Positions 9,734 through 29,178 of a DNA stretch of 64,000 nucleotides are shown piece after piece. A model generated the notes under the pieces. It was given only the letters and a program-made list of their open reading frames with translations, ran no database searches and was not told the origin of the DNA. This DNA comes from a phage. The stretch is taken from NCBI GenBank assembly GCA_017822615.1, contig GCA_017822615.1_4530.1. One strand, written 5' to 3'. A program made the position numbers and the translations under genes. Within the stretch, counting starts at the first letter, position 1. The number at the start of each line of letters is the position of its first letter.

Positions 9734-9768
9734 AAAGAAAAGGGAACCTTTGCGGGTTCCCTTTTTAT
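9734..9768. terminator. bidirectional rho-independent terminator between convergent modules
   Basis: gggaacc-tttgcg-ggttccc hairpin flanked by an A-run upstream and a T-run downstream. Confidence 0.65.
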
Positions 9769-12443
9769 TAGTCGTAATATTTCAAACCTGTAATGAACTT
9801 CGATCCCCAATCCGCACTTGCGGCGGTGAACGTCAACATCCAAGTTGTAGCTGTACCAGTGAAGACCTCTCGTTGCACAGTACCATCAGTGTGGTAAATG
9901 TCCACGCCAGTATGTCCATTCTTAGGAATAGTGAAGGTAACAGCACTGGTAGTGTCTCGTGCATAAGAACAAACAAATGGTGTCCCAGCCCAAACTGGAT
10001 TTGTCATATCACCCATCTCAAGCTGTGGAACCCAAGCAATAAGACCTGCCGTACCATCTCCTGCGAAAGTGTCTGATCCACTTGCATTCAAAGCTATAAT
10101 CTCATAGGTTATAGATGCTTGTTTGGCAACTGTCACTTTGTGTAGAATTACACGATACCAACCATTCCCCATATCGATTATGTTTGCATCTGCACCTGTA
10201 AATGTTCCAGCTACAAGATCATAAGTCCCTTCGTTAATCTCATCTCCTGAAGTCAATTTGAGTTTCACTTTAGTGATCCCGTCTGGCTTCAAGAATACGG
10301 ATGCCGCCCAGTGCTTACCTGCTGTAATATCAGAAGCTGTATTCACTGCTGATAAAATATGTTGTCCTGAAGTTGTAGAAGGTGTTAACTTGTAAGTGTT
10401 AGCTGTAGTTCCAACCGGAGAGTTGATTGTTGATGCCGTGACTGTCAAGTTCGTCTTCAACCACGGGGAAGCTGTTGTCAAGTTATTGTTGATAAAGATA
10501 TGTGTACGGTTGGCTGCTACAACACGTCTACCTTGTGGAGTTGTACCAACATATTCTAAAGGTGCTACGGGAGCAGAACTCTCTGTAGGTACAAGGATAT
10601 CTCCAGAAGCCCTGGCATAACGGTTACTCCTGTTGACCTTTACATCCGCCGGAATAGTTTCTTGCGTCAAATCATAATCCATCACAATCACCACAGCATT
10701 CACTGTGAGATAAGAACTATCTTCGGCAGTTACCACACCTTGATAAGTTGCTCTACAACCGATACGACAACCTCCATCAGCAACCGCTGTAATAACGCCT
10801 GTAACGGGGTCAACTGTTGCTACCGTAGGGTCATTAGAGAAATACTCAACAACCATACCAGGTAAGCTTGCTGCTCCTGTTGGCGTTATTTCTGCTACCA
10901 TTGTTTGTGTTGTTCCTACATCCATCGCAGATAAGCTAGGGGTGTAAACACTCAATGTTGAAGCATATCCTCCAGAGGTATCTGATAAAGTTGTTCCTTC
11001 AGCGTTTAAGGCTGTCATACCTGCATCAAAACCACCTTCTGCATGGAAAGTCATTAAACCAGTAGATGATATTGTCATGTTTGCAGGGGCAGAAGAAGTG
11101 TATTTAATATTGAAAAGTTTGCCTCCTTCTGGGCTAACAGAATGTGTCAACTGTTTAGTTCCACCTACAATACAAATTCCTAAAGAATCTGTAGTTAAGC
11201 CTGTTGCCAGAATATCGCCCGTAATCACGGAGCTTGCTATTGGTGTGAATTTATTATAGTTTAGACCACTATTGAACAGATACGAGGCTTTCCCATCTTT
11301 CCAAATACCGGAATAATACATATCTCCATTATAAACGAAAAAGGTTCCTTGATAACCTAATTGGTTAGTAACATCCATATTCAGCGTATGAACGCTTGTG
11401 AGCTTGTTTATATCCCAAGAACCCACTCCTTCAGGTTTAACTGGTTTTCCCACTTGGAGTGGATCTCCGCTCGCAGAATCATACCCCAAACCTAAGTTTG
11501 CAGTGTAGTTCTTACCAATAGCCCACAAGGAATTATTGATCCCAACGAAAAAAGAGTGGCGGCTTGGTGGAAACTTCCATGTTGAGAAACCTGCTGCAAA
11601 GGTATCCAGTTTAGTGTAGGTTGTTTCTGTATTAGATCTAACATATAAGTAGTTTACTGTACCCGTGCCACCGGAGGTATCTCCTACAACTATTGTCTGG
11701 GAAACTGTATTGATGTAATCTTTGACATACACTGTTTCAGTAGTGGATATTGTGGCATTGACAAAAGCTGTTGTTGTGTTATTATTACCTGCTAAACCTT
11801 TACTAGCTCCACAAACACGCAAGGTTCCCACATTGTTGACATAAGAGCATTGGTTGTAACCTGCATCAAAAGCAACTGCTGCGCTTGTTATCTGACGAGG
11901 AGTAGAAACTTCGTTAGTAGTGCTTGCACCTAAACTACCTACTGTGTTTTGACCCGATCCATAAAGAACACCACTATTCATTAACCAGAGAGTATTGTTA
12001 TACCCTCCTTTAACCTCTTTAAGATTGGCTAAAGAAATAGTCCCTGTTATTACAGATGGAAAGCTGGTCCAGGTAGTTACACATGCATCCGTACCACCTG
12101 CTGCTATAGATCCTACCAACCCTGCTGTCAATCCTGAATATTGCCATCCCCCACTGTTAGTTTTAATAACAAAACAACGATCTGCGGTAAACACATCCGC
12201 TACTACAGTAGAAGCTAAGTGGAAATTATTGAATCGTGCACTACGAGTTCCATCTGCAATCTCACCAAAGAGGTTTGCGCCTTGAGTAAACAATCTACCA
12301 TCATTAAGCAAAATTGCTAAACTGCTGTTAGAATTACCAGCGTTATCTGGGTAATCTAAAGTGATTACTTTTTTAACAATACCTGCTGGCAGAGGAACGA
12401 CACCAGTGCTGGTCATAATAGTAAATATTGGAATTGGAAACAT
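9768..12443 (-). CDS. tail fiber / receptor-binding protein with RCC1-like repeats
   Basis: 891 aa; repeated G-x-N/Q-x-x-G-x-L-G motifs (GVLYGSGQNTVGSLG, GRLFTQGANLFGEIADG) suggest a beta-propeller. Confidence 0.6.
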   Translation of the reverse strand: MFPIPIFTIMTSTGVVPLPAGIVKKVITLDYPDNAGNSNSSLAILLNDGRLFTQGANLFGEIADGTRSARFNNFHLASTVVADVFTADRCFVIKTNSGGWQYSGLTAGLVGSIAAGGTDACVTTWTSFPSVITGTISLANLKEVKGGYNNTLWLMNSGVLYGSGQNTVGSLGASTTNEVSTPRQITSAAVAFDAGYNQCSYVNNVGTLRVCGASKGLAGNNNTTTAFVNATISTTETVYVKDYINTVSQTIVVGDTSGGTGTVNYLYVRSNTETTYTKLDTFAAGFSTWKFPPSRHSFFVGINNSLWAIGKNYTANLGLGYDSASGDPLQVGKPVKPEGVGSWDINKLTSVHTLNMDVTNQLGYQGTFFVYNGDMYYSGIWKDGKASYLFNSGLNYNKFTPIASSVITGDILATGLTTDSLGICIVGGTKQLTHSVSPEGGKLFNIKYTSSAPANMTISSTGLMTFHAEGGFDAGMTALNAEGTTLSDTSGGYASTLSVYTPSLSAMDVGTTQTMVAEITPTGAASLPGMVVEYFSNDPTVATVDPVTGVITAVADGGCRIGCRATYQGVVTAEDSSYLTVNAVVIVMDYDLTQETIPADVKVNRSNRYARASGDILVPTESSAPVAPLEYVGTTPQGRRVVAANRTHIFINNNLTTASPWLKTNLTVTASTINSPVGTTANTYKLTPSTTSGQHILSAVNTASDITAGKHWAASVFLKPDGITKVKLKLTSGDEINEGTYDLVAGTFTGADANIIDMGNGWYRVILHKVTVAKQASITYEIIALNASGSDTFAGDGTAGLIAWVPQLEMGDMTNPVWAGTPFVCSYARDTTSAVTFTIPKNGHTGVDIYHTDGTVQREVFTGTATTWMLTFTAASADWGSKFITGLKYYD

Positions 12444-12452
12444 TTAAACCCT

Positions 12453-12481
12453 CCATAAAAAGAAAGCCCCTTTCGGGGCTT
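12453..12481 (-). terminator. rho-independent terminator (minus strand)
   Basis: aagcccc-tttc-ggggctt hairpin with T-run on the minus strand after the 12485 stop. Confidence 0.55.
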
Positions 12482-12484
12482 CTG

Positions 12485-14509
12485 TTATCGTGTTACAACA
12501 ACCATGTCCACGATATCACCCACACCAGGATACGTTAATTGCAAAATTGTTACTGCGTTAGCAGTAGTTGCTATTTCTGTATCATTTAGTGCTCCATAAG
12601 ACGCATCTAGTGTAACCGTGTGTCCCGTTGTATCTTGAATCAAATAAATCATTGCTGAAAACGCTTTAGGTTTTGTAGAGCCAGTGACACCAGGCCATGC
12701 TCCAACTGTCAGAGCGTCAGTTACTGTAACAAAATACATATTGGAAGTTCCAGAAGGAGTCCAAGATGCTCCAGAGTTGGCAGTAGTTGTTTCAAGTTCC
12801 ATGAAACCTGCTGTAACTCTAGTTGGTGTTATAGCTTCCGTAGGATCTGATCCTGATATTTCGATCCAATTTCCATCAGACCTACCATACGTCAAGCCGT
12901 CTTGAGGGGCTTCTGGTATACTAGGAAGAGTGCCTATAAGCGTCCACGTAGAAGAATCTGTTTTCTTAAACACTGCTCCAGTGGTAGTATTGAAGGCGTA
13001 ATCATTGATAACACCGTCTCCTGCGACTGGATTAGTTGTTGCTACAAACCACTGTGCGCCGTCCTTACCGTTGGTCCCATCAGTACCGTTGGTTCCGTTT
13101 GTTCCAGGATCACCCTTATCTCCTTTATCCCCTTTTTCACCTTTGTCGCCTTTAATACTTCCCATGTCAACAAAAGATGCGGAATTGGTGTCTTGATCGT
13201 AGGTATAGATGTAAAGATTACTAGTGTCTTCAGTTAAGTAAGCATCACCATAGTTATTGTAAACAGGGAGAGCTTCACTGTTCGGAACATGACCTTTAGC
13301 TGTAATTGATGTTCCTCCAAGACTGCCAACATTCATCCATTCCGTAGCATCTTGGACCCAAACATATAAATCATTATTAATTTTATATGCGTCACCTACT
13401 TCTCCAGTCGGAGGAAGTTCAGCTTCGCTGTTCAGAACCCCGATAATCTCTAAGCCTGATCCTGTTGCACCCACTGGTCCTTGTGGACCTAGTTCACCTT
13501 GTGGACCTCGCTCTCCTTGATCACCCTTGTCTCCTTTTGGACCTTTAAGTGAGGCAATAAAATCTACTTCTGTCCCTTCATTACCAGCATCCAGCCAACT
13601 TTGATATGCAGATTTCCCTTCATCTCCATCTGTTCCATCTAGACCGTCTTTTCCTGCCTCGCCTTGTGGACCTTGAGGACCAACAATATTACCCATGTTG
13701 ACCCAAGCTGTCCCATTAGAGACATAAAGATTACCATTGATAGAATAAGCTTGGCTTACGTTTTCAGAGGTAGGTTGTGGTAAGTTACTTGTAGAAGGCA
13801 AATCTCCACGATAATCAAAACCGTTGGCGTTAACACCAGGTGCTCCCTGTGGCCCTGTAGGACCAACATCGCCTTTATCACCTTTTATAGAGGTAAGGAA
13901 ATCATAAACAGATCCTGTATTACCATCTGCCAACCATACCTCGTAAGCTGATTTACCTTCTGGCCCAAGAGAAGAAATAAGTTTCCAAACAGAACCATCC
14001 CAAGCGTAGATTACATCACCTACGATATAACCATCCCCTGCAACGTTACCTGTGGATGGTAGTTCACTAGTACTTGCTAATGATCCTTTAATATTAAGTT
14101 GAGCACCAGTATCCCCTTTCAAAGAGGCAAGCCACTGTGCTTCTGTTCCAACAAAACCATTATCAAGTGCGATCTGATAAGCCGATTTACCAGCTTCAGG
14201 TATTGTTTCCGACAGATCATCAATTTGTTGCTGCATTGCCGTAAACTTGGCATTGATAATTGCTATATCATCAGCGGTCCCAACACTTTGCCATGCAAGG
14301 GAAGAAATACCACCTGTGGTGGCTGGCGTAGAGTTTGCTGGAACCACTTTAGGAAAAGTTCCTTTCCATTGGTAATAATTCCCTTCTGCTGCTAACAGCA
14401 AAACTTCACGGGAATTACGTAATGTAAAACCTGCCTCAAAGCTGCGACGTTTTCGATAAGTAGCTTCTACCAGATCGGCTATCGCACTATTAGGTCTTGT
14501 TAAATTCAT
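12485..14509 (-). CDS. tail fiber protein with collagen-like repeats
   Basis: 674 aa; several G-X-Y tracts (GDKGDVGPTGPQGAPG, KGDKGDQGERGPQGELGPQGPVGATG, GDKGEKGDKGDKGDPGTNGTNGTDG). Confidence 0.7.
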   Translation of the reverse strand: MNLTRPNSAIADLVEATYRKRRSFEAGFTLRNSREVLLLAAEGNYYQWKGTFPKVVPANSTPATTGGISSLAWQSVGTADDIAIINAKFTAMQQQIDDLSETIPEAGKSAYQIALDNGFVGTEAQWLASLKGDTGAQLNIKGSLASTSELPSTGNVAGDGYIVGDVIYAWDGSVWKLISSLGPEGKSAYEVWLADGNTGSVYDFLTSIKGDKGDVGPTGPQGAPGVNANGFDYRGDLPSTSNLPQPTSENVSQAYSINGNLYVSNGTAWVNMGNIVGPQGPQGEAGKDGLDGTDGDEGKSAYQSWLDAGNEGTEVDFIASLKGPKGDKGDQGERGPQGELGPQGPVGATGSGLEIIGVLNSEAELPPTGEVGDAYKINNDLYVWVQDATEWMNVGSLGGTSITAKGHVPNSEALPVYNNYGDAYLTEDTSNLYIYTYDQDTNSASFVDMGSIKGDKGEKGDKGDKGDPGTNGTNGTDGTNGKDGAQWFVATTNPVAGDGVINDYAFNTTTGAVFKKTDSSTWTLIGTLPSIPEAPQDGLTYGRSDGNWIEISGSDPTEAITPTRVTAGFMELETTTANSGASWTPSGTSNMYFVTVTDALTVGAWPGVTGSTKPKAFSAMIYLIQDTTGHTVTLDASYGALNDTEIATTANAVTILQLTYPGVGDIVDMVVVTR

Positions 14510-14571: not shown

Positions 14572-17500
14572 TTAGGTTGTTGGCACATCTACTACTGGCG
14601 TTGGGCGAATAACCGCAGTATTACCTACAGAAACATTACTGGAATCATTAGGTATGGTTTTAATTCTAACTCCAGCACTTGTAGGCGTTACAATTGGATC
14701 TGCAATGTCTATTTTAACTGGGTTAGTCCACGTATCATTATCTTGATAAGGTGCACGAGTAATAACTGTGTCCAAATCTGCTCCACCTACGCCAGCACCA
14801 GGAATACGGATACGTGTCCCTGCTGACAGAGGGTAATGATACAACCAAGAAGCATTTGTTGCTGTCCCGTTAGGAGTCAAGTTCTGTGTCAGGAAGGTAT
14901 CTCCTGCCTGTGTAGCTCGAATACCGAAAGCTGGGATATCTGGAATATATGCCCCACTTGTTGTTACAAGGAAGAACGTATTATCCGCTTTGACTATCAT
15001 ATCACCTTTGTCAAACTCTTTCCCTGTTGGGAAATGCATTCCATCAATGTTTCGACTAGGATTAGGCTCTAAGTAATAAACTTTGCCCGTTGTCCCTACA
15101 ATAGCTCCAATACCACCTGCGATATTGGTATACATATTAGCTTCAACATTACAGTTGACACGATGAATATCCGAGTAACGGCAACGGCTCCACTGTGGAC
15201 GACCAGTAACCATCGTCTTGCCATCTGGGTAACAGTTTACGTTAACCATTTCAAGAACAGATTTTTCTCTACGGAAGAATCCATCATAAAATGTCCCTGG
15301 ACCAGATTCAGGTTGACCAACACAATCGAAGATATTACAGGTGATGTTAGACATTGAAAGCCAAGAAGCTATACCGAACAACTGCAATGCAGCGCAACGA
15401 ATATTTTCAAAGCTAACTCTGTTTTCATAACCTGGCCCAGCGGAAACTCCCGCAAAAACACGCCCAGTTTTGGTGTGAATGTTACGAACAGAATAGTTAA
15501 AGCATGGATTTGAAGGTCTGCCCTGTGCCGGAACTACCGGATTACCCTCTTCGTCCAGAACTGCGTTAGTTCCCCACTCCAAGTAAATCATACGGATATT
15601 ACTTGCAAGTGTGCTACCGTCTGTTTTAGGCTCTCCATAAACACCATCAATCGTAAAGTCTTTACTTCCATACATTACAACTGCGCCAGTTGCCAAACCT
15701 GTCCCAACAGATACGGTTTGATCTGGATCGCCATGAATGTTTTCGATAGAAATATTACGACCAACTTCTACGTGGACAATCTGACGGCAACGTTTTGCAA
15801 AAACGTTACGAATTGTAATGTTCTTACAATATTGATCATCAGGGATTCCGTAACCATATGGTCCTTTACCAGCTACACCGATACCGATACCCCAGTTCGA
15901 CAGAGGAATAGGAGCATTAGTTCCATCGATATTAGACAGGTAAATATTCTCAATCACACAACCATCGTCATAATGTTTATTGATGACGTTCAGTTCTATT
16001 GCATCACCTTGCATGTCCATGAAGGTAAGGTTACGGAAGACACCACGTGTTACTGGTTCCCCTGTTCCTTGTTGAAGGATGCCGTATAACCCATTTTTAA
16101 AAGTACAATTATCAATTTCAAAAGTACCTGATATTGGGTTGCCTTGGAATACCAAGCTACCAACTTGACCCGCGCGAGGAGCACCGTCCCACAAACAATC
16201 GAACATGCGCACAGCACCACCCCAATACATAACACGAGAGTTACGGAAAGTTGTGCCTTCTACTGTAGCATTTTGCACACGATAGTCGCGTTGACCACGG
16301 AACACACCCCCACGCAAAGTGATACCTTGAATATCAAAAGAGCTTGTCGTGAAAGTCATATCGCAACCGTAAGCATCGAGAATCTTGCTTTTCGAAGCTT
16401 TTGCTGCTAACAGTGCCGCTTGGAAAGCTGCTTCTGGTGTGGTATATGCTGTTGTGTTGTTAGCAAATTCTGACAAGTAGACAACATCGAATAAATCGTT
16501 GTATGTTCCACCACGAGGGGTTAACAGTCCTTCTGTATTGGTCAGAACCCATGCATTTGGACCTAATCCACCGCTTGTCTCCAATGTATCGGAGGCCAAA
16601 ATACTTTTTGGTAAACTTCCAGCCCAACGATAACGACCAGCGCCACGTCCAATCGTCTGATTTTTAGCTGTCAGAGTTACATTATTACCAAAGCTTGTAG
16701 GCAAATGAACAAACTGTCCACGCTCAACAGCCAGTGCAGAAAGGTCTACAGATCCTCCAGAATAAGTCATTACTCCAGAAACAGACAAGGATGTTAAAGT
16801 GCCTGTAATGTTAGGAGGTAATGTGTAGGAAGACTGCGCTACCGGATCATACAGAGCTTTAATCCCTGTTAACGATTGACCTGCTGTTGCGTAAGCCACC
16901 TCATCATCTAACAAACCATACTTACGAGCAATAGTTTGCAGAGGGACTTTATCCATGCTTTCTGTTAGTTCTTCCGTTTTTGTTTCTAAACTAACAAGAC
17001 GGTTCTCTAGATTAGGATCTGTATCTGCTGAAGCTACGATTTTGCCAATATAAGCAAAAAGTTTGTTTGGCAGTCCTGTTGCAGGATCGTGTCCCAAAGG
17101 TTCAGATAAGATGATCTTACTATCTTCTATACGGAAAGCTTCCCCCAGAACCTGAATAACACCATTGATCGTAACAATAGCACTATCAAAGATGTAAGGA
17201 GGACTAATTACTGTTTCATAACCAGTTGCACCAGAATATACCCAAGGGGTGACTTCTGTTGCCAATTGTTCTGTCTTCAGTCCCCACAATACCCAGTTGT
17301 TATCTCCTACTGGAGTCCCTTGCATAGGGATTGGGTTAACCAATGTAGCGTTAGGGGCATAGTAATAACCGCTCAATACTCCATTCTGGAAATAACGAAG
17401 TTGGTTAAAAACTGTTTCGTTTGTGCCTTGCGCCCAATCCAATGGGCTTTTAAAGAAAAAGTTGTCAACAAGGGCTTTTCTCAGGGTTGGTATCAACCCT

Positions 17501-17625
17501 GATTCTGTTTCAATACTCTCTGTAGCACTTCCATTAATAACATCATGGAGTTGGTTAGATGAGAAAATAACCAGGTCTACGCCCTGTTCGAGAGACGTTG
17601 CTGGATATGTTGGGAATGTTGCCAT
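14572..17625 (-). CDS. tailspike protein, probable beta-helix depolymerase
   Basis: 1017 aa; N/G/T-rich repeats typical of right-handed beta-helix tailspikes. Confidence 0.6.
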   Translation of the reverse strand: MATFPTYPATSLEQGVDLVIFSSNQLHDVINGSATESIETESGLIPTLRKALVDNFFFKSPLDWAQGTNETVFNQLRYFQNGVLSGYYYAPNATLVNPIPMQGTPVGDNNWVLWGLKTEQLATEVTPWVYSGATGYETVISPPYIFDSAIVTINGVIQVLGEAFRIEDSKIILSEPLGHDPATGLPNKLFAYIGKIVASADTDPNLENRLVSLETKTEELTESMDKVPLQTIARKYGLLDDEVAYATAGQSLTGIKALYDPVAQSSYTLPPNITGTLTSLSVSGVMTYSGGSVDLSALAVERGQFVHLPTSFGNNVTLTAKNQTIGRGAGRYRWAGSLPKSILASDTLETSGGLGPNAWVLTNTEGLLTPRGGTYNDLFDVVYLSEFANNTTAYTTPEAAFQAALLAAKASKSKILDAYGCDMTFTTSSFDIQGITLRGGVFRGQRDYRVQNATVEGTTFRNSRVMYWGGAVRMFDCLWDGAPRAGQVGSLVFQGNPISGTFEIDNCTFKNGLYGILQQGTGEPVTRGVFRNLTFMDMQGDAIELNVINKHYDDGCVIENIYLSNIDGTNAPIPLSNWGIGIGVAGKGPYGYGIPDDQYCKNITIRNVFAKRCRQIVHVEVGRNISIENIHGDPDQTVSVGTGLATGAVVMYGSKDFTIDGVYGEPKTDGSTLASNIRMIYLEWGTNAVLDEEGNPVVPAQGRPSNPCFNYSVRNIHTKTGRVFAGVSAGPGYENRVSFENIRCAALQLFGIASWLSMSNITCNIFDCVGQPESGPGTFYDGFFRREKSVLEMVNVNCYPDGKTMVTGRPQWSRCRYSDIHRVNCNVEANMYTNIAGGIGAIVGTTGKVYYLEPNPSRNIDGMHFPTGKEFDKGDMIVKADNTFFLVTTSGAYIPDIPAFGIRATQAGDTFLTQNLTPNGTATNASWLYHYPLSAGTRIRIPGAGVGGADLDTVITRAPYQDNDTWTNPVKIDIADPIVTPTSAGVRIKTIPNDSSNVSVGNTAVIRPTPVVDVPTT

Positions 17626-17628: not shown

Positions 17629-17964
17629 TTACCCCTTATTCTGTGTACGTTTAACTATGTCATCTAGCATCATTTGGATAGTCGCATTCTTGAGGTCCAT
17701 AATCTTTTCAATTTTTTGCTCAAGGGTGTTATTATTTGCCATTAATGTAGAGTTAATTTGATTTAGCATCTGGGTAAGTTCGGCTTTAGTTGCATAAGTT
17801 GATTCAACAAAGACCAACTTCTTCTCTAGCTCTCGACTTTTCTCCTCCATTTCCTCAAGATCAGAGCCGAATTTATCCATTTTTTGTTTGAAAAAGAACC
17901 AGATGACTCCGATTAAAGGGATTATTGCATCCTTTGCAAGTCCCCATGCTTCTTGAAATTCCAT
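17629..17964 (-). CDS. membrane-anchored coiled-coil protein
   Basis: 111 aa; N-terminal TM segment IIPLIGVIWFFF followed by a charged helical region. Confidence 0.5.
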   Translation of the reverse strand: MEFQEAWGLAKDAIIPLIGVIWFFFKQKMDKFGSDLEEMEEKSRELEKKLVFVESTYATKAELTQMLNQINSTLMANNNTLEQKIEKIMDLKNATIQMMLDDIVKRTQNKG

Positions 17965-17973
17965 AGTGATCCC

Positions 17974-19581: not shown

Positions 19582-19590
19582 TTAAACTCC

Positions 19591-20220: not shown

Positions 20221-20222
20221 TT

Positions 20223-21710
20223 TTACACTCCATACTCGTAAGAAATGTTATCAAGGTCAAAAGAAGGGACAACATTATAAGCAGGAACTATATTATTCTC
20301 TGTATATTTACTGTCATCCTCAGTATTAAGTTTAACATAAACACGAAGAGAAGTCAAGCGTCCAAAAGCAAGTGCTGCATAAATAACACCTTTGATTTGA
20401 TCGTTCGTTACTGAAGAACCTAATTCAAAGTAAGCTTGCAGGTTTTGTAAAGCTTCTACGATGTTTTGTTTTTCTGTTCCACTTAAAGTTGTTCCGTTGA
20501 CAGTTTGATAAACAAGTTTTACAGAATACATAGCAGAAGCACCAGGAGAGAAGCGAATAATTTCTTGTCCTCCATCTTCTGTTGTAACTGTTATGTTAGT
20601 TGTTCCGTGTGTCAAAGTGTTGATTGGTTTGGTTTTATAAATAACATTTGCAATTTCTTCTGCACTGCCACCATAAACTATAGTCTGGAAAGTCATAGCT
20701 GGAGCGTGTTCTTGATCATGTAACGTAGGGTTATCATAAATCTTCACCTTAGTAACACCATCTGTAAGCAACAGAGCTTTCACAATAGCTGCTCGTGTCC
20801 CTGCGTTAGCTTCATCAACGTTGTCATTGAAACGAGAGCGGAATTCTGCGTCTGTCTCAACATCTCGACCAGGAGAAAATGAATAGAAGTTACCACTGTC
20901 AAGATAACCTGTAAAGGTAGAAGATATCCCTGTAATAGACTCCACACCAACAGGATTGTATCCTTTCTCTGCTGCAACTACCGGAATCTCACTCCATTTG
21001 GTTCCAACCGGAACACTAGCATAAAATTTAATAGGAGTTACCAGCCCCACTGGAGTATCACTGGTTAAAGAAGTAAAACCAATTGATAAGTTACCTGAAT
21101 CAGAAAATACAAGACTACGATCAGCTTCTGTTAAATTTGCCTTGATAAAAGTTTCAAGATCGGTTATAAATGTAGAAGAACCAGGTGCAAGTGTTTTACT
21201 GTTTAGTCCTCCATCGACCGCACTTTGTGCATAAAAAGTAATATTTGGAACACCTGTAGCAGTTGCATTAGCACGAGAGATTTGATAAGCTGCAATCTTA
21301 GCATTCAACATAGTTGGTGTGCTAACATAGTAGTTCATATCACTATCAGAGTTGAAATAAATATCTGTGCCTAGCTCATAAGTCCAAGCTGCTTTGTTAT
21401 TACTCTTAACATATGCATAACCTGTACTTGCTGCTGCACCTGCTCGATAGAAACCGCGTTTAGAAAAGATTTCATCAAGATAAATACCTTCTGCACCATC
21501 CAGTGTTTGAGTATTATAAACACCTTGCATACCTTCCCACAATGTGTAATCTGTGTATGCAATTATTCTAAACAGTTGTCCGATCACAGTATCTTCCGAA
21601 GTGGCTGCATCTGCACCAAATGTGTTTTTTACTGCTGTCATGTAGTTGTTTAAAACATCGTCAAAAGTCGGGATTACAAATCCCGCATCTGTCAAACCAT
21701 ATTCGTCCAT
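20223..21710 (-). CDS. baseplate J-like protein
   Basis: 495 aa; size and position upstream of gpI-like and fiber genes. Confidence 0.45.
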   Translation of the reverse strand: MDEYGLTDAGFVIPTFDDVLNNYMTAVKNTFGADAATSEDTVIGQLFRIIAYTDYTLWEGMQGVYNTQTLDGAEGIYLDEIFSKRGFYRAGAAASTGYAYVKSNNKAAWTYELGTDIYFNSDSDMNYYVSTPTMLNAKIAAYQISRANATATGVPNITFYAQSAVDGGLNSKTLAPGSSTFITDLETFIKANLTEADRSLVFSDSGNLSIGFTSLTSDTPVGLVTPIKFYASVPVGTKWSEIPVVAAEKGYNPVGVESITGISSTFTGYLDSGNFYSFSPGRDVETDAEFRSRFNDNVDEANAGTRAAIVKALLLTDGVTKVKIYDNPTLHDQEHAPAMTFQTIVYGGSAEEIANVIYKTKPINTLTHGTTNITVTTEDGGQEIIRFSPGASAMYSVKLVYQTVNGTTLSGTEKQNIVEALQNLQAYFELGSSVTNDQIKGVIYAALAFGRLTSLRVYVKLNTEDDSKYTENNIVPAYNVVPSFDLDNISYEYGV

Positions 21711-21952
21711 TAGTCATCCTCTTTGGTAGATTGTGATCTGCCCCAGCGTAAATCAATAAGATTTTTCATGAGGCGAGAAGGAGTTATCATGAAAACAAAA
21801 GCCCAACCCATCCATTCAGGAATTTCTTTTTCTATTCCTAAAAAGATAAACATGCCTGTCATAACCGACATGCCTACAGCGTTCCAGACTTTCGTAGAAC
21901 TGACTTTATTATCAGGATATGTACAGAACATACCTATTAAAAATTTTCTCAT
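21710..21952 (-). CDS. small membrane protein (two TM segments)
   Basis: 80 aa; hydrophobic stretches VMTGMFIFLGI and WMGWAFVFMI; charged C-terminus. Confidence 0.5.
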   Translation of the reverse strand: MRKFLIGMFCTYPDNKVSSTKVWNAVGMSVMTGMFIFLGIEKEIPEWMGWAFVFMITPSRLMKNLIDLRWGRSQSTKEDD

Positions 21953-21954
21953 AG

Positions 21955-22103
21955 TGCGTTCTCATTACTTTTTAAATCACGATATGCAGCTAATTCCCCA
22001 AGGTCTACAGAACCCGCTGAATGCACAAGTACAGCAGCACTAAGACTAATGGCAGTAGTACCTGGGGCAATACCGCCTTGGGAGAACATTTCGTTCATAA
22101 GTA
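21955..22103 (-). CDS. hypothetical small protein (49 aa), not in ORF track
   Basis: RBS AAGAGG before ATG at 22103; its TGA overlaps the ATG of the 21952 gene. Confidence 0.4.
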
Positions 22104-22148: not shown

Positions 22149-24131
22149 TTAAGATCCTGAAGACTTAACCCATGTAAAGGTGTCTCCACGATAAATAACT
22201 TCGTATCCGAGAGTAGTGTCGAAATACTTTTGCCATGCGTAAGGCTGGCTAGGTCTATTGGCTGTAGTACCGCCTTCGTTTAGCCCGTAACTGAAGCGTC
22301 CGGTGCCGTTTGCGCTAAAGAACTCACCTCGCACGGTATCGATACTCCAAGTATTTAATAGCTTCTTGCAAATCATCTTACCTGTGGCAGTGCTACGCAC
22401 TTCAGTAGTACGCGCCTCCAACATATCAGTAAAGATGAAATTCATCTGATTGCCTGATGTGTTGTAGCAGGTAAATTGCATTTCATCTGTACCATAACCA
22501 GCCTGAATAGTTACGGCAATAGGCCTGGTTGCATTGGTATTACGCACCTCATTACACCAGCGCGAGTTAGTAACTGTACCTGATGCAGTGAACTCCTGGT
22601 ATATCTTAGAGTTCGTGCGAATGCCTGCTGCTGCCGGGTTATGAATCTCAGGGTAAGTAAACTTACTACGGTCATACGTTATGTTGTTGAAAGTATAATT
22701 GCCGACATCTCCCGATATATTGTTTGTAATGGCAATAGGGTGAGTAAGCGTAGTACTACGGTTAATGATGTTTAGGTTATCAATTGTGATACCACCTGCA
22801 GTACCCCCTGCATAGTTATTGTAAATACCAATAGCTACACCATACGGGGAACTGGTATCACCTACCTGGTTACAGTTCAAACTTGTCATATTACGGATAT
22901 GGAACTTACAATCATCTCGCCACTTAACAGTTTGCAGTTCCTGATTCTTACTGTTACGCCCATAAACGGAATCAATAGTAATATTGCCGGACACGCCCCC
23001 GTCACCACGGATTTCTATACAACGTTGGCATCCAATAGATGATACGGACCCTACGGTAACGTTTATAGGTTGTGATACACCAGTAAGTTGGTGTACTGCA
23101 AACAGGAGTGCAGGCCCAGCGTTATTAACACCTCGTACAGAACCTATTACTAAATCAATGATAAATTCAGAAGATACGTCAGGCTCCACGTCAATAGTAG
23201 CCCACGGACCTGCCGAAGCTCCTTGAATACTAACTCCTACACTATCTTCGATATATAAACCACGGCATGAGATAACACTTATACCTTGTCTACGAGAACG
23301 GGTGTATACACCAGTACCGGTAATTGCACCTCCGTACTGTTGGTCGTCGTTAACGAACCAAAGGATACTATCGCCCCAACAATAACTGATGTTTGGTGAA
23401 TCAATCACAAGGTTGCTACTGTTGAAGTTGCGAATACCATAACCCCATTCACCTGTAGTCCCTGTATGTGTTTCAACATCACCAACAATAACAGGGTTAA
23501 TTATTTTTGAGTTATGAGCATAGTAAGCGTCTATGATGACATATCGCCCTGATTCTACTGCATCCATTTTTAAAGACGCACCAGCAGAAAATTCGATGTC
23601 TATATTTTGGCGGGTCATTCTCAGCCCCATAGGATATGTTTCACTCCTGACAGGGTCCAAAGTATCCACGAGAACAATTCTATGCTCTCCTGGCGGAATG
23701 GTTACTTTATTAGGGGTCAATTCATATGCGGTTTTCAGAAGAGGCATGATGTCGTCTCCGCTTTTTACAGCCCCCCAATTTCTTAAATCGTCGATATCAA
23801 ATCCATTAAGTAATCCAACGCACTGCCACGAGTCGTCAGGGGAGGAACCGGCACCTACAGTTATAGTGCCGTATTTGGGTGTGTAATAATAACCGTTTGT
23901 TGTGTTTTTTAGAGCTGATACACCCTCAGTTGCGCTTCCTCCTGATAAGAAAGATCCTTCAGACTTAACTAATTGGAGTGGTTTTAGTGTATTATTAGCC
24001 CAGCTTCCAACCGTGTCAGTAAGAAAGTTGGAAACTGTGCTTTTAACAGTCTTATCAGGTTGGTCTAAAACCAGGTAATCAGAACCATTAACTTTTGATG
24101 TTTCGGGTAAATTAGTAATTGTAGTTGACAT
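22149..24131 (-). CDS. tailspike protein, pectate-lyase-like beta-helix
   Basis: 660 aa; repetitive G/N/S/V-rich beta-strand pattern. Confidence 0.6.
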   Translation of the reverse strand: MSTTITNLPETSKVNGSDYLVLDQPDKTVKSTVSNFLTDTVGSWANNTLKPLQLVKSEGSFLSGGSATEGVSALKNTTNGYYYTPKYGTITVGAGSSPDDSWQCVGLLNGFDIDDLRNWGAVKSGDDIMPLLKTAYELTPNKVTIPPGEHRIVLVDTLDPVRSETYPMGLRMTRQNIDIEFSAGASLKMDAVESGRYVIIDAYYAHNSKIINPVIVGDVETHTGTTGEWGYGIRNFNSSNLVIDSPNISYCWGDSILWFVNDDQQYGGAITGTGVYTRSRRQGISVISCRGLYIEDSVGVSIQGASAGPWATIDVEPDVSSEFIIDLVIGSVRGVNNAGPALLFAVHQLTGVSQPINVTVGSVSSIGCQRCIEIRGDGGVSGNITIDSVYGRNSKNQELQTVKWRDDCKFHIRNMTSLNCNQVGDTSSPYGVAIGIYNNYAGGTAGGITIDNLNIINRSTTLTHPIAITNNISGDVGNYTFNNITYDRSKFTYPEIHNPAAAGIRTNSKIYQEFTASGTVTNSRWCNEVRNTNATRPIAVTIQAGYGTDEMQFTCYNTSGNQMNFIFTDMLEARTTEVRSTATGKMICKKLLNTWSIDTVRGEFFSANGTGRFSYGLNEGGTTANRPSQPYAWQKYFDTTLGYEVIYRGDTFTWVKSSGS

Positions 24132-24139: not shown

Positions 24140-26293
24140 CTATATATAAAATTTTTGTGTTGTTACCAAATCTTCTCCAGATTTAGTAGCTAATGTAATT
24201 CCACTTATGGTAGCAATCTCAACATTTGCTTGTTTAAGAGTGATATCTTGCAAATAACAATTCAAAGGCACATTACCCATATAGAAAACTTGGGATTGAG
24301 AATTAACTACCGTGATGGAATCATGCATTATTTGAGGATAGGCCCATATATATTGTGTAAGCCCATTGAACTTATTGGCGTTCAACACTATATTACCTAT
24401 AATCATCTTCCAAAGATATGTGCGGTAGTTTGATTTAGGATCAAAGCCATACAAAGGTGCAAGAGTAGCATCTGGAACAAAACCTGAAAGGTAGTGAATA
24501 TCAGAATATTCAAAACCTAATTTTTCATGTGGTATAGTAATTGCATCAAATGCTTTCATCATCTTACCTTCCAGAAGCCAGTCATAACACTCTGAACAGT
24601 AAAAATCAAAAGCTTCAGGAATGTAGTAATCAGACGGGAAGTTAACTTTCTCCATCAAACCGTTGCCGATAATTGATGGCAAGAACGGAAGCAATGTTAC
24701 CTTGGCTCCTGGGTAAGTTGCTCTAGTATCTGTTGCAAACTTTGTAACTCTTAATCCTAGTTTACGAGACAAAAATGCATAATATTCGTCAAACGGCGTT
24801 CCTGTTTTATAATTATCTATTGTTCCTGCATCTTGTGCAAATAAACCTGTTTCTGTGTTGAATGCCAGTTTGGTAGTGTAATCATATATGCAAGGCATTT
24901 TACTTGCTGTATTATACCACCACCAAGGCTCACCAATTTGAATGACAACTGGAATATTATTAGCTTGCGAAATAGATGCTATTTTATTAATAACATTTTG
25001 CAAATATTCCATACCTTCGTCAATAGTTGGAGACAACACATAACTAGGAGGTTCATACCCTGTTGCTGCAAGAGCATCGTTCCAATCATGCTGGACCCAT
25101 TCTACAGGACAAACTGTGCTCATCAATTCAAAACTTAAAGAGTTCATTATTGTGTAGCCCTTCTCGTTTGCTATAGAATGGAAGCTGTTAAGCCAAGCTT
25201 CTGTAGCCGGATTCAGGAAAACAGATTTATTTAAAGCCCAAGATGTTCCATTCCATGAGAACTCATAATAGTGAGACATTCCGTTATAATGGTTAATCAT
25301 CCCACGATAACCTAGTGCATATGTATTATAAATAACTCTCTCTGGAGTCAGGTTATACATATCATCATAAGATGTGCACATGCGAATATCATGTTCAGGC
25401 TGGACAAGGTTGCTGACTTTCATCATACTGTAACCAGAGGTAGGTTCAAGAAGAGTGAAAGTAAACCAAGCCTCTTGACTGTCAATAGGTACAACCTCTT
25501 CTATTTCTTCATACCTTGCTGTAATCAAAGAGAAGAAAATATTATCTACAGCACTCATATCCAAAGGAATATCATTATTAGGGCCAGAAAAGATATTACC
25601 AAAATCTAACTTGATTGTAGCTGTTTTACCATCTTCTGAAATATCTGAAGCGTAGAATCCTAAACTGACATAATGAACACTTTTATCCAGGAGAGTTACA
25701 GTCAAAGTCGGCACCAAAGGTTCTTCTTTAAAACCTGGCATGTTTTGACTAATTTCCATTTTAAACCAAAGTTTCTCTGAACTTAAATCTGTGTGGGGTA
25801 AATACCCAACACCTTTATGGTCATATTTGTCAACTGTGCTCCAGATAACCCCTGCCAAACCTGCTGTTGTTCTGTTTACAAATCTTGCAGTAAAAGAGTC
25901 TCCATGAGATACAATAGAACAACTTTCCGTTGCTTGAGAATCTATTGTCCAATACATAGGAGAGAACATTTTAACGTCTTTTGTAGTCCAAGTTATTGGA
26001 GTAGTATTTTCTTGGATAGTAGTTATAATACAATTGATGGTTGTTTCAACCATCATGTTATTTTGACTAATCCCTGAAACTTGGAGGGAGAAGTTAAGAT
26101 CTATTGAGTTCTTTGGTCGTTCAAATACTTCAACCACAATGGTAGCAGAATCAGCATCATCAGGGAACACAAGTGTTCCCGATTTTGCAATATAATCTCT
26201 ACCAGCGACTGCTGTTCCATCAACAGTCGTGTAGTTAAATGAACTCGCATTTACTCTCTTGTCTCGCGTGACAGTAAATATAGCTTGTTTCAT
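24140..26293 (-). CDS. tail-associated protein with N-terminal Calx-beta-like domain
   Basis: 717 aa; FNYTTVDGTAVAGRDYIAKSGTLVFPDD matches the Calx-beta motif; large C-terminal domain. Confidence 0.5.
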   Translation of the reverse strand: MKQAIFTVTRDKRVNASSFNYTTVDGTAVAGRDYIAKSGTLVFPDDADSATIVVEVFERPKNSIDLNFSLQVSGISQNNMMVETTINCIITTIQENTTPITWTTKDVKMFSPMYWTIDSQATESCSIVSHGDSFTARFVNRTTAGLAGVIWSTVDKYDHKGVGYLPHTDLSSEKLWFKMEISQNMPGFKEEPLVPTLTVTLLDKSVHYVSLGFYASDISEDGKTATIKLDFGNIFSGPNNDIPLDMSAVDNIFFSLITARYEEIEEVVPIDSQEAWFTFTLLEPTSGYSMMKVSNLVQPEHDIRMCTSYDDMYNLTPERVIYNTYALGYRGMINHYNGMSHYYEFSWNGTSWALNKSVFLNPATEAWLNSFHSIANEKGYTIMNSLSFELMSTVCPVEWVQHDWNDALAATGYEPPSYVLSPTIDEGMEYLQNVINKIASISQANNIPVVIQIGEPWWWYNTASKMPCIYDYTTKLAFNTETGLFAQDAGTIDNYKTGTPFDEYYAFLSRKLGLRVTKFATDTRATYPGAKVTLLPFLPSIIGNGLMEKVNFPSDYYIPEAFDFYCSECYDWLLEGKMMKAFDAITIPHEKLGFEYSDIHYLSGFVPDATLAPLYGFDPKSNYRTYLWKMIIGNIVLNANKFNGLTQYIWAYPQIMHDSITVVNSQSQVFYMGNVPLNCYLQDITLKQANVEIATISGITLATKSGEDLVTTQKFYI

Positions 26294-26301: not shown

Positions 26302-29178
26302 TTACTCGGTAACGTCCACACTAATGTTTGCCATTGTCAAAACAGTAAGTGCAGGAATATTGCTCGAATCCAAAACAGGTAATGCATTTTGGGGATTAAG
26401 TTTTTTGTATAAGGCATACAACCCAAAACCACGTAACAACTCTCCGGCGTGGAAGCCAAAGAAGACTCCGTTATCACTGTCTGGTCTAGGAGCAGCACTC
26501 CAACAACCATTCATAACGTGATTAGGACCAAGAACAATATAATTTTCCTGAATAAGTTCAAAACAGCGATCTGCTACTATTTTAATGTTAGGAATTTCTG
26601 AATCATATCCAGCCATCCCCATTATAGCACATCCCGCCATAAAGAGCGCAGACATGTGACTTGTAAAGTCATCTACAGGCGCAGCCACTTCTCCGTTGGG
26701 ATAAAATATTGTTGGTGTTCTTCCTTCGTTGTTATCTTGGAACCACTTCAGATAATTGATCCAGTTTTTACAAACTGTTAAAAGTTTTGCAGGAACTTCT
26801 GCTCCTCGTTGCTTCAGTTCGTATACTGTATGACACGCACAGAAGAATGCTCGTGCTTCATAACCATCCCAAGCTTTATCGTTCCAATGATACATTGTGA
26901 ACTCATTCTTGTTTCCATATTTATGAGCATCCCAACGATCCCAAACATAAGCTTGTGCCATTGGCCCAGGCATCACAGGGGCAAACTTATTATAAAACCA
27001 CATTTGTGAATCATATAAAAAGTCTATACTGTTGTTCATACGAACCCAGTCAATATCTCTCCCTTTAAAACAATATAAGGATGGGTATTGATAACCTGGG
27101 TAAGGAATACCACGCCAACCATCATACAATGCTGTGTTAGGATCACTAATATTGGAAAATGGAATGATTCCTGGAGTATAATTCAAACTATCAAGTTTGT
27201 AGTCCAGTATCGTACAATCTCCAAGTTTTGCTGTATAAGGCTTTTCAGACGAAACTGTAACCCTGAAGTACATTGTGTAGTCATCGCCAGTGGCTGAAGA
27301 ATACAAAGATGGGATATCGTTAACGCAATAAAAGTCGATTGCCCCTGTCAAACCATTTGCAGGTTCAGAATCCAATGCAATGTTAATCTGATCAACAGTA
27401 GTCAGGTTTATTGACGAAGGTTTTGTCTCTGTGTCATTGTGATTAGGTTGCCAAGTACTTAATTTGAAATCAGCAGGACTTAAAGCTTTAGTAACCCATG
27501 CAGAATTTGTTTTTTCTAACATGGCCCACCATCTCCAACCTGCGGAATCCGTAATAGTGATGTTAAAATCATCTGCGTATGAACGATACGTAATAGATTT
27601 TAAATTGGTTGTTTTAGTTGGTGTTAACCAAAACCCAATAGTAAAACCACCATCTGAATCCATATTAGCAGAAACTATCTGATCACTATTTGTCCCAGCA
27701 ATACCAGTTGCATATTTATATTGTATCACAGTATTGCTTCCCCAGTCAACAATGATTCTAGGTTCAGCAATAATATATACACCACCTCCAGGAGGTTCAG
27801 TGCGCATAAAACTGGATAAAGGTATATCCATCTTAGTCATATTAGCTGCACCAAGAGGTAAGCCACAACGATATGTCACTGTGTCTGTTTCACTCTTAGT
27901 CTTGCTTAATTCTAACTCTGGACGGAAAAGAACACCTTCCCCTGCATCATCTACGCCTTGAAACTCAATACGCAGTTTTGAATTCTGATCCACTCTGAAC
28001 CAAACTGCTTGTTGTTCTAGAGTTGTTTGTGCTGCAACATCTTGGCGAATTACTGTGTATCCTAACTCGTCACGAGAATATTTAGGTATTGCTGTAGATG
28101 GGTATGAGTAATCATACGAGATACCATCTGTAAAAGGAATTATTGCTGTCGTAGATCTACGGAAGAATTTATCAAACATATCGATGTTTGAGTAGTCTTG
28201 ACACAACAATAAAGAAGATTGCCAGCAAAGCCAGTATTTTCTCTCTCCTGTGATTTGATACATCAAGTAGTTTGCATCACACCACCACGTTTCAGCATCG
28301 GAAGCATTATCTTGATAACCTAACTCTACCGGAACGTTTACAGGACGGTTATGCCACATCTCATTACGCTTAAGCAGATATCCACCGTGTTCTACAGGAT
28401 TGCATGTAGCGTAGTTGAATTTATAGTCCCCGTTCACAGAAGCATTTTTAAGTTGCACTGTTCCATATTCTGCGAAGCTGTGCCCTGTAGATAAAATGTT
28501 ACCGTCCCAATCAACTTTACGTCCTAGACGATCTATAATCCATTCAACGTCCCACTGATCTCCATATTCTTTCCAGTTGGTTGAACCATCTGGGTTAGTT
28601 GCATAAACTGTTGCGTTAACGGAGTTCCAACCAAGATTGCCATTGAAAGCAAACCAAGCTTTATCTAAGTATTCCCCCCAATGCGGTGCACCTTTAGGAA
28701 TAACAGTCCTTCCGTTAATCCAAGTCATCATGCTACCTTTGAACCCGCCGTGCGTAGGATACCCATCATCTGTGAGAGGGTAATGTGCTAAACGTGGTTC
28801 TTTACCATTGATGATCCAGTTGGGACGATATTTAGCTGGAGGATCAGGAATAGGTTGGCCCCCGAAGAAGTGATCTATATAGGCTTGCCAATACTTCTCG
28901 GCAGATTCAAGATATTTTTTATCCCCTGTAGCCAAATATGCATAAGCAAAACCAGTGATAAGCACAGATTGACCTTCGGTAGTAGCGTCACCGTTTGGTT
29001 GCCCTTCCTGCGCTGTCCAGTTAATAAAGTGTCTGTTGTTCGCCAATACGTTTTGTGGGTTGATAATGTAATGCTGAACCGTAGGATCTATGGTAAGCCC
29101 AGTATTTCTTTCCAAAAACTGAACCAACCCTTCAATCAACTGAAACGTGTTGTCAATATTGTGCTTAACTCTTGACAT
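26302..29178 (-). CDS. large tail fiber/depolymerase-like protein
   Basis: 958 aa; N-terminal region (GFAYAYLATGDKKYLESAEKYWQAY) resembles alpha/alpha-toroid polysaccharide lyase/hydrolase folds. Confidence 0.45.
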   Translation of the reverse strand: MSRVKHNIDNTFQLIEGLVQFLERNTGLTIDPTVQHYIINPQNVLANNRHFINWTAQEGQPNGDATTEGQSVLITGFAYAYLATGDKKYLESAEKYWQAYIDHFFGGQPIPDPPAKYRPNWIINGKEPRLAHYPLTDDGYPTHGGFKGSMMTWINGRTVIPKGAPHWGEYLDKAWFAFNGNLGWNSVNATVYATNPDGSTNWKEYGDQWDVEWIIDRLGRKVDWDGNILSTGHSFAEYGTVQLKNASVNGDYKFNYATCNPVEHGGYLLKRNEMWHNRPVNVPVELGYQDNASDAETWWCDANYLMYQITGERKYWLCWQSSLLLCQDYSNIDMFDKFFRRSTTAIIPFTDGISYDYSYPSTAIPKYSRDELGYTVIRQDVAAQTTLEQQAVWFRVDQNSKLRIEFQGVDDAGEGVLFRPELELSKTKSETDTVTYRCGLPLGAANMTKMDIPLSSFMRTEPPGGGVYIIAEPRIIVDWGSNTVIQYKYATGIAGTNSDQIVSANMDSDGGFTIGFWLTPTKTTNLKSITYRSYADDFNITITDSAGWRWWAMLEKTNSAWVTKALSPADFKLSTWQPNHNDTETKPSSINLTTVDQINIALDSEPANGLTGAIDFYCVNDIPSLYSSATGDDYTMYFRVTVSSEKPYTAKLGDCTILDYKLDSLNYTPGIIPFSNISDPNTALYDGWRGIPYPGYQYPSLYCFKGRDIDWVRMNNSIDFLYDSQMWFYNKFAPVMPGPMAQAYVWDRWDAHKYGNKNEFTMYHWNDKAWDGYEARAFFCACHTVYELKQRGAEVPAKLLTVCKNWINYLKWFQDNNEGRTPTIFYPNGEVAAPVDDFTSHMSALFMAGCAIMGMAGYDSEIPNIKIVADRCFELIQENYIVLGPNHVMNGCWSAAPRPDSDNGVFFGFHAGELLRGFGLYALYKKLNPQNALPVLDSSNIPALTVLTMANISVDVTE

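Follow-up and report, generated by a model that had tools for sequence, protein, structure and literature searches.

A predicted host-recognition locus of the phi92 type, with an exchangeable tailspike slot, in a phAPEC8-like phage genome

Introduction

The closest described relative of the locus considered here is that of phage phi92, whose three lateral fibers are co-expressed and have orthologous loci in Phapecoctavirus and Vequintavirinae, the ensemble having been compared with a nanoscale "Swiss army knife" of glycan hydrolases (PMC8594841). Papers citing Schwarzer et al. (2012) describe the phi92 locus as a "multivalent adsorption apparatus", and co-assembly of fibers on one virion has been shown for this phage (PMC13450770, PMC8594841). 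Multi-fiber equipment of this kind is known since 2012 in phi92, phAPEC8 and rV5-like phages, and is annotated in many genomes. Here we describe a corresponding array, six large genes and the smaller genes among them, at positions 9768-29178 of a 64,000-nucleotide stretch of phage DNA (GenBank assembly GCA_017822615.1, contig GCA_017822615.1_4530.1), which is referred to as the window and numbered from its first letter.

[quoted passage not shown] That 2026 study screened only fiber-shaped candidates, and never mentions gp141 or gp142 (PMC13450770). The podovirus N4 provides a second point of reference. Its gp64/gp65 heterodimer is the non-contractile tail sheath, with gp65 binding NfrA. [quoted passage not shown]

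Identity and gene order of the locus

On nucleotide similarity the window is assigned to Phapecoctavirus (subfamily Stephanstirmvirinae), as the genome of a phAPEC8-like myophage infecting E. coli. When positions 9768-29178 were used as a megablast query, 141 phage records were matched, and in 60 of these the alignment, at 95-99% identity, extends over 80% or more of the query. About 90% of the region aligns with the genomes of phAPEC8, Ro121c4YLVW, ESCO13, SKA64 and others, at nucleotide identities of 97-98.5%, and the non-aligning 10% or so is a single block, 22073-24012.

All six large open reading frames (ORFs), of 891, 674, 1017, 660, 717 and 958 aa, lie on the minus strand with exactly the coordinates and lengths of the original prediction, a reading that a model had made from the letters and a list of ORFs. 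Each has a full-length or near-full-length match to PHROG tail proteins, and these matches, together with the near identity to dozens of Phapecoctavirus genomes, mark the six as real genes and not chance frames. The smaller genes that were said to split the set are likewise in place, since Pfam identifies the 495-aa product as the Baseplate_J wedge protein, the 209-aa product as a DUF2612 wedge protein and the 181-aa product as a Caudo_TAP tail fiber assembly protein, while the 353-aa short fiber is the counterpart of phi92 gp147, or fiber III. The same prediction had listed collagen-like tracts, a Calx-beta-like domain, two beta-helix tailspike-like proteins and an alpha/alpha-toroid-like enzyme candidate, all of which are borne out by the searches and models described below.

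In a blastp comparison with the translated phi92 genes, all 13 window ORFs were matched by their positional counterparts (Table 1), in the same gene order, gp140-gp151; the orthologs are collinear, between baseplate hub genes and the replication module. Annotations of the same genes in the BASEL phage EmilieFrey read "lateral tail fiber protein with several glycosidase domains", "with glycosidase and deacetylase domains", "with type I collagen domain" and "with intimin and glycosidase domains". Given these annotations and the published phi92-type loci, the locus as a whole was already known. It is very probably a host-recognition cluster of tail fibers and tailspikes, orthologous to the multivalent adsorption apparatus of phi92, and as such real but ordinary for its group. 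The description of the set as unusually rich therefore holds against the average myophage but fails within the lineage, where the locus repeats phi92 gp140-gp151 gene for gene.

Table 1. Features of the locus, with phi92 counterparts and amino acid identities (blastp)
Feature	Position	Strand	phi92 counterpart, identity	Content or basis
Terminator-like hairpin	9738..9765	-		Just 3' of the 891-aa gene; consensus scan
891-aa protein	9768..12443	-	gp152, 62%, Ig-like part only (411-587)	RCC1-like propeller ~40-322, Big_2 Ig-like ~400-590, C-terminal domain 615-831
Terminator-like hairpin	12463-12482			After the 674-aa gene
674-aa collagen-like fiber	12485..14509	-	gp151, 60%	Tail_spike_N 12-77, four G-X-Y tracts, C-terminal knob 559-671
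Terminator-like hairpin	14550-14562			After the 1017-aa gene
1017-aa mosaic tailspike	14572..17625	-	gp150, 75% over 1-215, 33% over 455-1002	gp150-type N-terminus 1-215, CBA120/G7C-type module ~216-454, beta-helix 455-1002
Baseplate block (80, 495, 209, 353, 181 and 111 aa)	17629..21952	-		Pfam and blastp against phi92
111-aa protein			gp149, 76%	
181-aa protein			gp148, 24%	
353-aa protein			gp147, 75% over residues 1-267	
209-aa protein			gp146, 87%	
495-aa protein			gp145, 80%	
80-aa protein			gp144, 81%	
49-aa ORF, downstream cassette boundary	21949..22098	-		3' part (to 22072) homologous to the 3' end of Ro121c4YLVW gp051
Terminator-like hairpin	22126-22141			After the 660-aa gene
660-aa protein, body (residues 41-660)	22149..24012	-		Right-handed parallel beta-helix; AlphaFold2 and Foldseek
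660-aa protein, N-terminal anchor (codons 1-40)	24013..24131	-	gp143, 95%, only first 40 residues	Matches the start of the gp143 endosialidase
717-aa protein	24140..26293	-	gp142, 77%	Calx-beta 4-82, NCTSP_N 107-292, TIM-barrel_NCTSP 299-658
958-aa protein	26302..29178	-	gp141, 83%	Split (alpha/alpha)6 barrel
157-aa small fiber-like protein	29178..29651	-	gp140, 84%	blastp against phi92; phi92 annotation

A single exchangeable tailspike cassette

Variation was surveyed by tblastn of each large protein against 50,697 phage genomes. The 958-, 717-, 1017- and 674-aa proteins are at least 95% identical at full length throughout the genus, and the 660-aa protein departs furthest from this pattern. 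Homology to Ro121c4YLVW is lost after position 22072 and regained at 24013, and the cassette so delimited has a GC content of 0.435, against 0.36-0.38 in its flanks. The regained homology begins with the 40-residue N-terminal anchor of the 660-aa protein, a peptide that is 100% identical in dozens of Phapecoctavirus proteins with mutually unrelated bodies; in a collection of 5.8 billion proteins the identical N-terminus stands on endosialidase, GDSL, pectate-lyase, beta-helix and GDPD bodies. An AlphaFold2 model of the 660-aa protein, built as a monomer (pLDDT 85.4), predicts residues 1-47 to be disordered (pLDDT <50) and the body to be a beta-helix. Foldseek matches it to CBA120 TSP3, AlgE4, the Pam1 tailspike, the APK16 depolymerase and the P22 and HK620 tailspikes, the tailspikes and the depolymerase at probability 1.00, and homologs of the protein carry PF13229 and PF12708.

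The body itself was not found among the 50,697 phage genomes, the best broad match there being a Vibrio phage protein at 38% identity, and by this measure the 660-aa tailspike is the sole new item of the locus, an allele without a match in sequenced isolates. Relatives that are 96-59% identical occur in the 5.8-billion-protein collection as metagenomic proteins with other N-termini. On a small myophage contig that lacks 958- or 717-like genes, an 825-aa Tail_spike_N protein with a 96%-identical body is encoded at the corresponding baseplate position, flanked by genes for the sheath initiator and the wedge; a 95%-identical copy lies on a contig of about 150 kb with phi92-like neighbour genes. 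E. coli CUWW11 (NZ_CP182154.1) has, in a P22-like prophage beside ybhB-bioA, a tailspike that carries a head-binding domain of the P22 type and is 76% identical, and among 5,426 complete E. coli genomes a relative of the body was found in this strain alone, at 75% nucleotide identity.

An attempt to read the receptor of the spike from lysogens gave an ambiguous answer, because this single lysogen has two glycan clusters. One, beside the his operon, is a wzm/wzt polymannan cluster of the O8 family, and the other, of the Wzx/Wzy type, lies beyond gnd and is disrupted by IS903B. From its variability, the predicted 660-aa spike looks to be directed at a strain-specific O- or K-antigen, and it is the only large protein of the locus that looks strain-specific.

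The slot is empty in EmilieFrey. At the downstream boundary of the cassette, the 49-aa ORF occupies the position of a 102-aa "tail protein" gene of Ro121c4YLVW (gp051), and looks like a gene truncated by cassette exchange. The hairpin in the 196-nt gap between the 660- and 80-aa genes is GC-rich, CCCCTCTTCGGAGGGG, and is followed by a T-rich tail.

A conserved pair of proteins beside the slot

The genes for the 157-, 958-, 717- and 660-aa proteins are separated by -1, 8 and 8 nt, with a one-base overlap between the stop of the 157-aa gene and the 958-aa start. A Pfam search of the 157-aa protein was empty. Tested for an (alpha/alpha)6 barrel, a glycosidase-like fold, the 958-aa protein is predicted to form one, built of helices at 8-104, 293-330 and 711-924 and broken by two beta-rich insertions at about 120-290 and 350-660 (about 170 and 310 residues). 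The protein is conserved at full length, and without allelic variation, in 521 of 534 phage records. Its family, for which there is no Pfam model, is made up of 189 clusters (50% identity) in a set of 1.84 billion representatives, and extends to Vequintavirinae and to Ackermannviridae-, Grimontviridae- and Goslar-type phages. A fold search of BFVD with the model returned only unnamed or generic tail proteins, in which functional annotation was absent.

Membership of glycoside hydrolase family 8 (GH8, PF01270) was considered for the 958-aa protein and rejected. Pfam was empty for the full protein and for a core from which the insertions had been spliced out, as was a PDB profile search; hhalign against E. 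coli BcsZ, with the full profile and spliced, gave a non-significant probability of 0.3-0.4%; and a Smith-Waterman comparison gave z = -1.2 over 500 shuffles. Since every sequence-level test was non-significant the protein is not filed as GH8, and is kept as a GH8-like fold with co-linear motifs. The motifs are TTEGQ (66-70) and N-A-x-D-A-E (291-296), which the non-significant hhalign alignment places on TSEGQ and ASDGD of BcsZ. The TSEGQ and ASD[AG]D motifs carry the catalytic Glu and Asp of GH8. In an alignment that descends to 32% identity, and includes rV5-like, Grimontviridae, Ackermannviridae and Goslar phages, 57 columns are invariant. The invariant acidic residues are E68, D294, E296, D351, D544 and D654, the first three of which lie within the two motifs, and Q70 is equally invariant. 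Together, the co-linear motifs and the invariant acidic residues favour a retained active site. We regard the 958-aa protein as a probable baseplate-attached scaffold, conserved and with an enzyme fold.

Homologs of the 958-aa protein are also found fused to other modules. In P0226 (1557 aa) a 958-like module is followed by NCTSP_N and the NCTSP TIM barrel, in the order of the adjacent genes of the window, whereas P0206 (1097 aa) consists of the P2 gpI wedge domain (Tail_P2_I) and a 958-like module; further homologs, 1.4-1.66 thousand aa long, have a Gly_rich_2 C-terminal domain. These fusions suggest a baseplate platform onto which varied distal modules are fused.

The three Pfam domains of the 717-aa protein all score above cutoff (TIM-barrel_NCTSP 267 bits, NCTSP_N 59.7 and Calx-beta, PF03160, 42.3, each against 27). 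In the PDB the protein matches chain 9lc0_M (Gp64) at E 3.5e-30 and chain 9lc0_I (gp65) at E 1.1e-12 of the N4 sheath, and its Calx-beta domain matches the CBD of the Na/Ca exchanger at E 1e-4. By homology to N4 Gp64, the likely target of the protein is the NGR glycan. It is matched at full length in 247 of 332 phage records from many families, again without allelic variation, and such conservation of both proteins points to a scaffold, or to the targeting of a conserved glycan, and not to a strain-specific receptor binder. From the fusions P0226 and P0206, the tight packing of the four genes and the fact that the 40-residue anchor is invariant together with the pair, we infer that the 958- and 717-aa proteins would make up a platform, attached to the wedge, on which the exchangeable spike is carried.

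The 1017-aa spike and the 674-aa collagen-like fiber

The 1017-aa protein is the second beta-helix spike of the locus, its helix matching phi92 gp150 (PDB 6e0v) at E 1.5e-79. Ahead of the beta-helix, residues 226-399 match CBA120 TSP1, TSP3 and TSP4 and 4qnl at E 1e-26 to 1e-30, and a Tail_spike_N domain at 302-361 (37.7 bits, cutoff 25) is absent from phi92 gp150. The protein is at least 99% identical in 61 phage records, matches phrog_6117 ("colanic acid degradation") and is 46% identical to an annotated "tailspike colanidase"; on the last of these and on the 33% identity to the characterised catalytic domain of gp150, it is moderately likely that the spike targets colanic acid. The widespread "colanic acid-degrading" annotation stems from distant homology, given 33% identity to gp150 and an extra module of about 240 residues.

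In the 674-aa protein Pfam recognises Tail_spike_N (PF18668) at 70.5 bits (cutoff 25) and Collagen at 46.4 bits (cutoff 27.2). The collagen-like tracts, at 210-227, 277-300, 323-352 and 454-486, hold 6, 8, 10 and 11 G-X-Y triplets, 35 in total, and such runs were not found in the other five large proteins. PDB matches of the fiber are 9vvr_A, 5w6h and 9cuy_g. N-terminal modules of the CBA120 TSP type form branch points in CBA120, and have a like role in G7C. The likeliest docking partner of the 674-aa Tail_spike_N domain would be the 1017-aa spike, and the homology of the docking domains, together with the gene fusions described above, makes a branched apparatus probable.

The 891-aa propeller protein

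The last of the large genes was predicted to encode an RCC1-like N-terminus, a claim that stands in part. The Pfam RCC1 repeat is just over its cutoff (24.0 bits against 21.7), whereas WD40_RLD (E 7.9e-11, 42 bits) falls under its cutoff of 150; PDB matches are to the RCC1-like domains of RPGR (E 2e-4) and HERC2, over a range of E 2e-4 to 3e-3, and a PHROG match to "regulator of chromosome condensation" has E 7e-34. At the other end of the protein, residues 615-831 match Rcc01080, the head spike fiber of RcGTA, at E 5.7e-14, and the RcGTA head fiber binds capsule. The first 584 residues are about 97% identical in EF1-1 and ETEC-TG, where the C-terminal third (9768-10690, codons ~585-891) has been replaced, and only 33 of 392 phage records match the protein at full length. 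These comparisons mark the C-terminal third as another swap point, milder than the cassette. Relatives of the C-terminal domain, at 26-29% identity, occur in the ~44-kb phages Kagunavirus LM08P1, Sf11, Snoke and NTEC3.

Genomic context

The gene array runs closely packed from the baseplate hub genes (~33150) down to 9768, with junctions that are mostly -1 to 9 nt. Apart from the 196-nt gap 3' of the 660-aa gene, wider gaps, of 62 and 41 nt, occur only 3' of the 1017- and 674-aa genes, respectively. That the region is transcribed leftward is confirmed by its GC skew. GC content is 0.42-0.435 in the distal fiber genes (10001-18000 and 22001-24000), against 0.38 in the conserved baseplate genes (18001-22000) and 0.36 in the region of the 717-aa gene (24001-26000), and the raised values are compatible with horizontally acquired modules. 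Internal paralogy was considered and rejected, since 18 locus proteins, compared with one another by blastp, have no module in common at E <= 1e-3, and hence no recognisably duplicated anchor is common to the six. The terminator-like hairpins are only suggestive, as the scan gave 21 sites where 12.9 +/- 4.2 are expected; the promoter scan (51 sites against 52 expected) was uninformative.

Within the baseplate block, at 17974-19581, the 353-aa fiber resembles gp147 in its first 267 residues only, and the chaperone is just 24% identical to gp148, so that fiber tip and chaperone appear to have been exchanged together between two genera.

About 20 records labelled Campylobacter phage (A110a, A140 and others) belong to the same E. 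coli phage group, as does the 98%-identical Acinetobacter phage vB_AbaM_ABPW7. These host labels look doubtful or derived from contamination; one paper does, however, note that Campylobacter has been reported to be a host of the subfamily.

Discussion

Collectively, the searches and models support enzyme-type folds in four of the six large proteins: a gp150-like beta-helix, a second tailspike beta-helix, a glycosidase-like (alpha/alpha)6 barrel and a TIM barrel of the N4 Gp64 type. Structure predictions were examined for the possibility that these are baseplate proteins devoid of enzymatic or binding domains, and enzyme-type folds were seen. As for the wider claim that the locus forms an adsorption apparatus with several depolymerases, its multi-component character stands, but the 958- and 717-aa proteins look like scaffolds and not like ordinary receptor binders. 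The suggestion that capsule or O-antigen is the target suits the variable 660-aa spike, with its presumed O- or K-antigen, but is too narrow for the locus, where colanic acid and the NGR glycan are also likely.

In the arrangement that we propose, different fibers and spikes would be mounted jointly on each of the six baseplate wedges. The pair of 958- and 717-aa proteins, seated on the wedge, may act on conserved glycans such as NGR, and is probably the arm that grips the exchangeable tailspike via its invariant 40-residue N-terminal peptide. The spike in the slot, here of 660 aa, would recognise and probably cleave the strain-specific O- or K-antigen, while the 1017-aa spike would clear exopolysaccharide of the colanic-acid type and may carry the 674-aa fiber through its CBA120-like N-terminal modules. 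The 891-aa propeller/Ig protein would add a further glycan-binding tip, and the 353-aa short fiber (fiber III) would make the irreversible contact with the lipopolysaccharide core that triggers contraction. Host range could then be retuned mainly by swapping the cassette 22073-24012. A more specific form of this proposal, which we put forward only tentatively, is that the gp141/gp142 pair is an enzymatically active wedge platform, a GH8-like hydrolase joined by a deacetylase-like barrel, that acts on a conserved glycan such as NGR, holds the tailspike by its anchor and accounts for density left unassigned in phi92, whether in the proximal arm of fiber I, in fiber II ("short, thick, rigid") or in both.

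Several points weigh against this arrangement. GH8 membership of the 958-aa protein fails at the level of sequence, and the TIM barrel of the 717-aa protein may be non-catalytic, since N4 gp64 and gp65 are known as structural sheath subunits. The substrate of the 1017-aa spike could differ from that of the characterised colanidase gp150, to which only 33% identity remains. The case for a 674-aa fiber that branches off the 1017-aa spike is one of domain homology. The apparatus is known here from its genes, and placement on the baseplate of the 958-, 717-, 1017-, 674- and 891-aa proteins is presumptive even in phi92, in whose cryo-EM study gp141 and gp142 go without mention and gp150 and gp151 could not be fitted into fiber II (PMC13450770).

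These points bear on three rival explanations. The pair might be a purely structural baseplate periphery with catalytically dead folds, leaving the 1017- and 660-aa spikes as the only real depolymerases, and the full-length conservation of the pair without alleles across many phage families and hosts, the sheath role of the N4 homologs and the lack of a sequence-level match between the 958-aa protein and any glycoside hydrolase family are all in keeping with this. It sits less well, however, with the six acidic residues that are kept at identities as low as 32%, of which E68, D294 and E296 lie in motifs that a non-significant alignment places on TSEGQ and ASDGD of BcsZ, or with a Gp64-type domain that is common to exactly the NGR-dependent phages. 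Scaffold and catalytic roles can, moreover, coexist, and a wholly dead pair seems to us a possible but rather unlikely outcome. A doubt of about the same size attaches to branching, where each large protein could instead occupy its own site on the wedge or the sheath-initiator ring, with Tail_spike_N binding the baseplate directly. The Tail_spike_N spike of the small myophage, encoded between sheath-initiator and wedge genes in a contig that has no 958/717-like genes, fits such direct attachment, as does the finding that fibers I and III of phi92 each touch the wedge protein gp145 (PMC13450770). Against unbranched fibers speak the N-terminal modules of the CBA120 TSP type in the 1017-aa spike, which serve as branch points in CBA120, and the occurrence of 958- and 717-like modules as fusion proteins, and we consider such fibers somewhat improbable.

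Far less likely again is that the 891-aa protein, and possibly the 674-aa fiber, decorates the head or neck and is not a receptor-binding protein of the baseplate. The match of residues 615-831 to the RcGTA head spike fiber would agree with such a location, as would the note of a "potential capsid binding domain" in the phi92 record for gp151 and the frequent occurrence of Big_2 Ig domains on capsids, but the N-terminus of the 674-aa fiber is Tail_spike_N, as in tail-mounted spikes, and the domain of the RcGTA fiber, a module for capsule binding, could serve in either place.

If the proposed wedge platform is correct, the 958/717 pair would be a widespread and undescribed baseplate module, the 958-type family being present also in Vequintavirinae and in Ackermannviridae-, Grimontviridae- and Goslar-type phages. 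The gp141/gp142 orthologs are obvious candidates, hitherto passed over, for the fiber density left without an assignment in the newest phi92 structure. In Phapecoctavirus, a single cassette behind an invariant anchor would essentially set host range, which offers a clean handle for engineering. Moreover, the sharing of the 660-aa body with metagenomic myophages and a P22-like E. coli prophage indicates that spike bodies are exchanged across phage morphotypes.

Comparison with known systems

The known systems resemble the locus to very different degrees. The (alpha/alpha)6 hydrolases of GH8 and clan GH-M, such as BcsZ, share the barrel of the 958-aa protein, but theirs is not split by the two beta-rich insertions and there is no significant sequence similarity. 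The N4 sheath proteins (PDB 9lc0, 9yf4) are homologs of the 717-aa protein, gp64 of its TIM barrel and gp65 of part of it. In N4, however, they are two chains that form a sheath around a podovirus tail, whereas the window encodes one chain, with an added Calx-beta domain, in the baseplate locus of a contractile tail; most of the ten domains of gp65 lack a counterpart in the 717-aa protein, and D8-D10, which make the plug and tube contacts, are unmatched in sequence. With the TSP1-4 proteins of CBA120 (Kuttervirus) and gp63.1/gp66 of G7C, the locus shares the Tail_spike_N/TSP N-terminal modules, present in the 674-aa (12-77) and 1017-aa (226-399) proteins at E 1e-9 to 1e-30, but the receptor-binding bodies are not orthologous.

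Closer are rV5 and the other Vequintavirinae, which have orthologs of the 958-aa (35%) and 717-aa (43%) proteins, short fibers and a chaperone and, like the group studied here, a mostly conserved locus with few variable genes; they are more distant than phi92, and rV5-like phages differ from the window in having two short-fiber paralogs and three variable large genes (PMC8594841). In phi92 itself the slot is taken by a 918-aa endosialidase instead of the 660-aa beta-helix, gp150 is without the CBA120-like module (~216-454) of the 1017-aa spike, its catalytic beta-helix being the 33%-identical part, the fiber tip and assembly protein are divergent, and only the fragments gp152/gp153 remain where the window holds an intact 891-aa gene. 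The other Phapecoctavirus genomes are nearest of all. Five of the six large proteins are at least 99% identical in some relative, and the genomes differ only in the tailspike cassette at 22073-24012, where phAPEC8 has a 921-aa endosialidase, Ro121c4YLVW a protein of 762 aa and SKA64 one of 849 aa with a GDSL-family match noted in its record.

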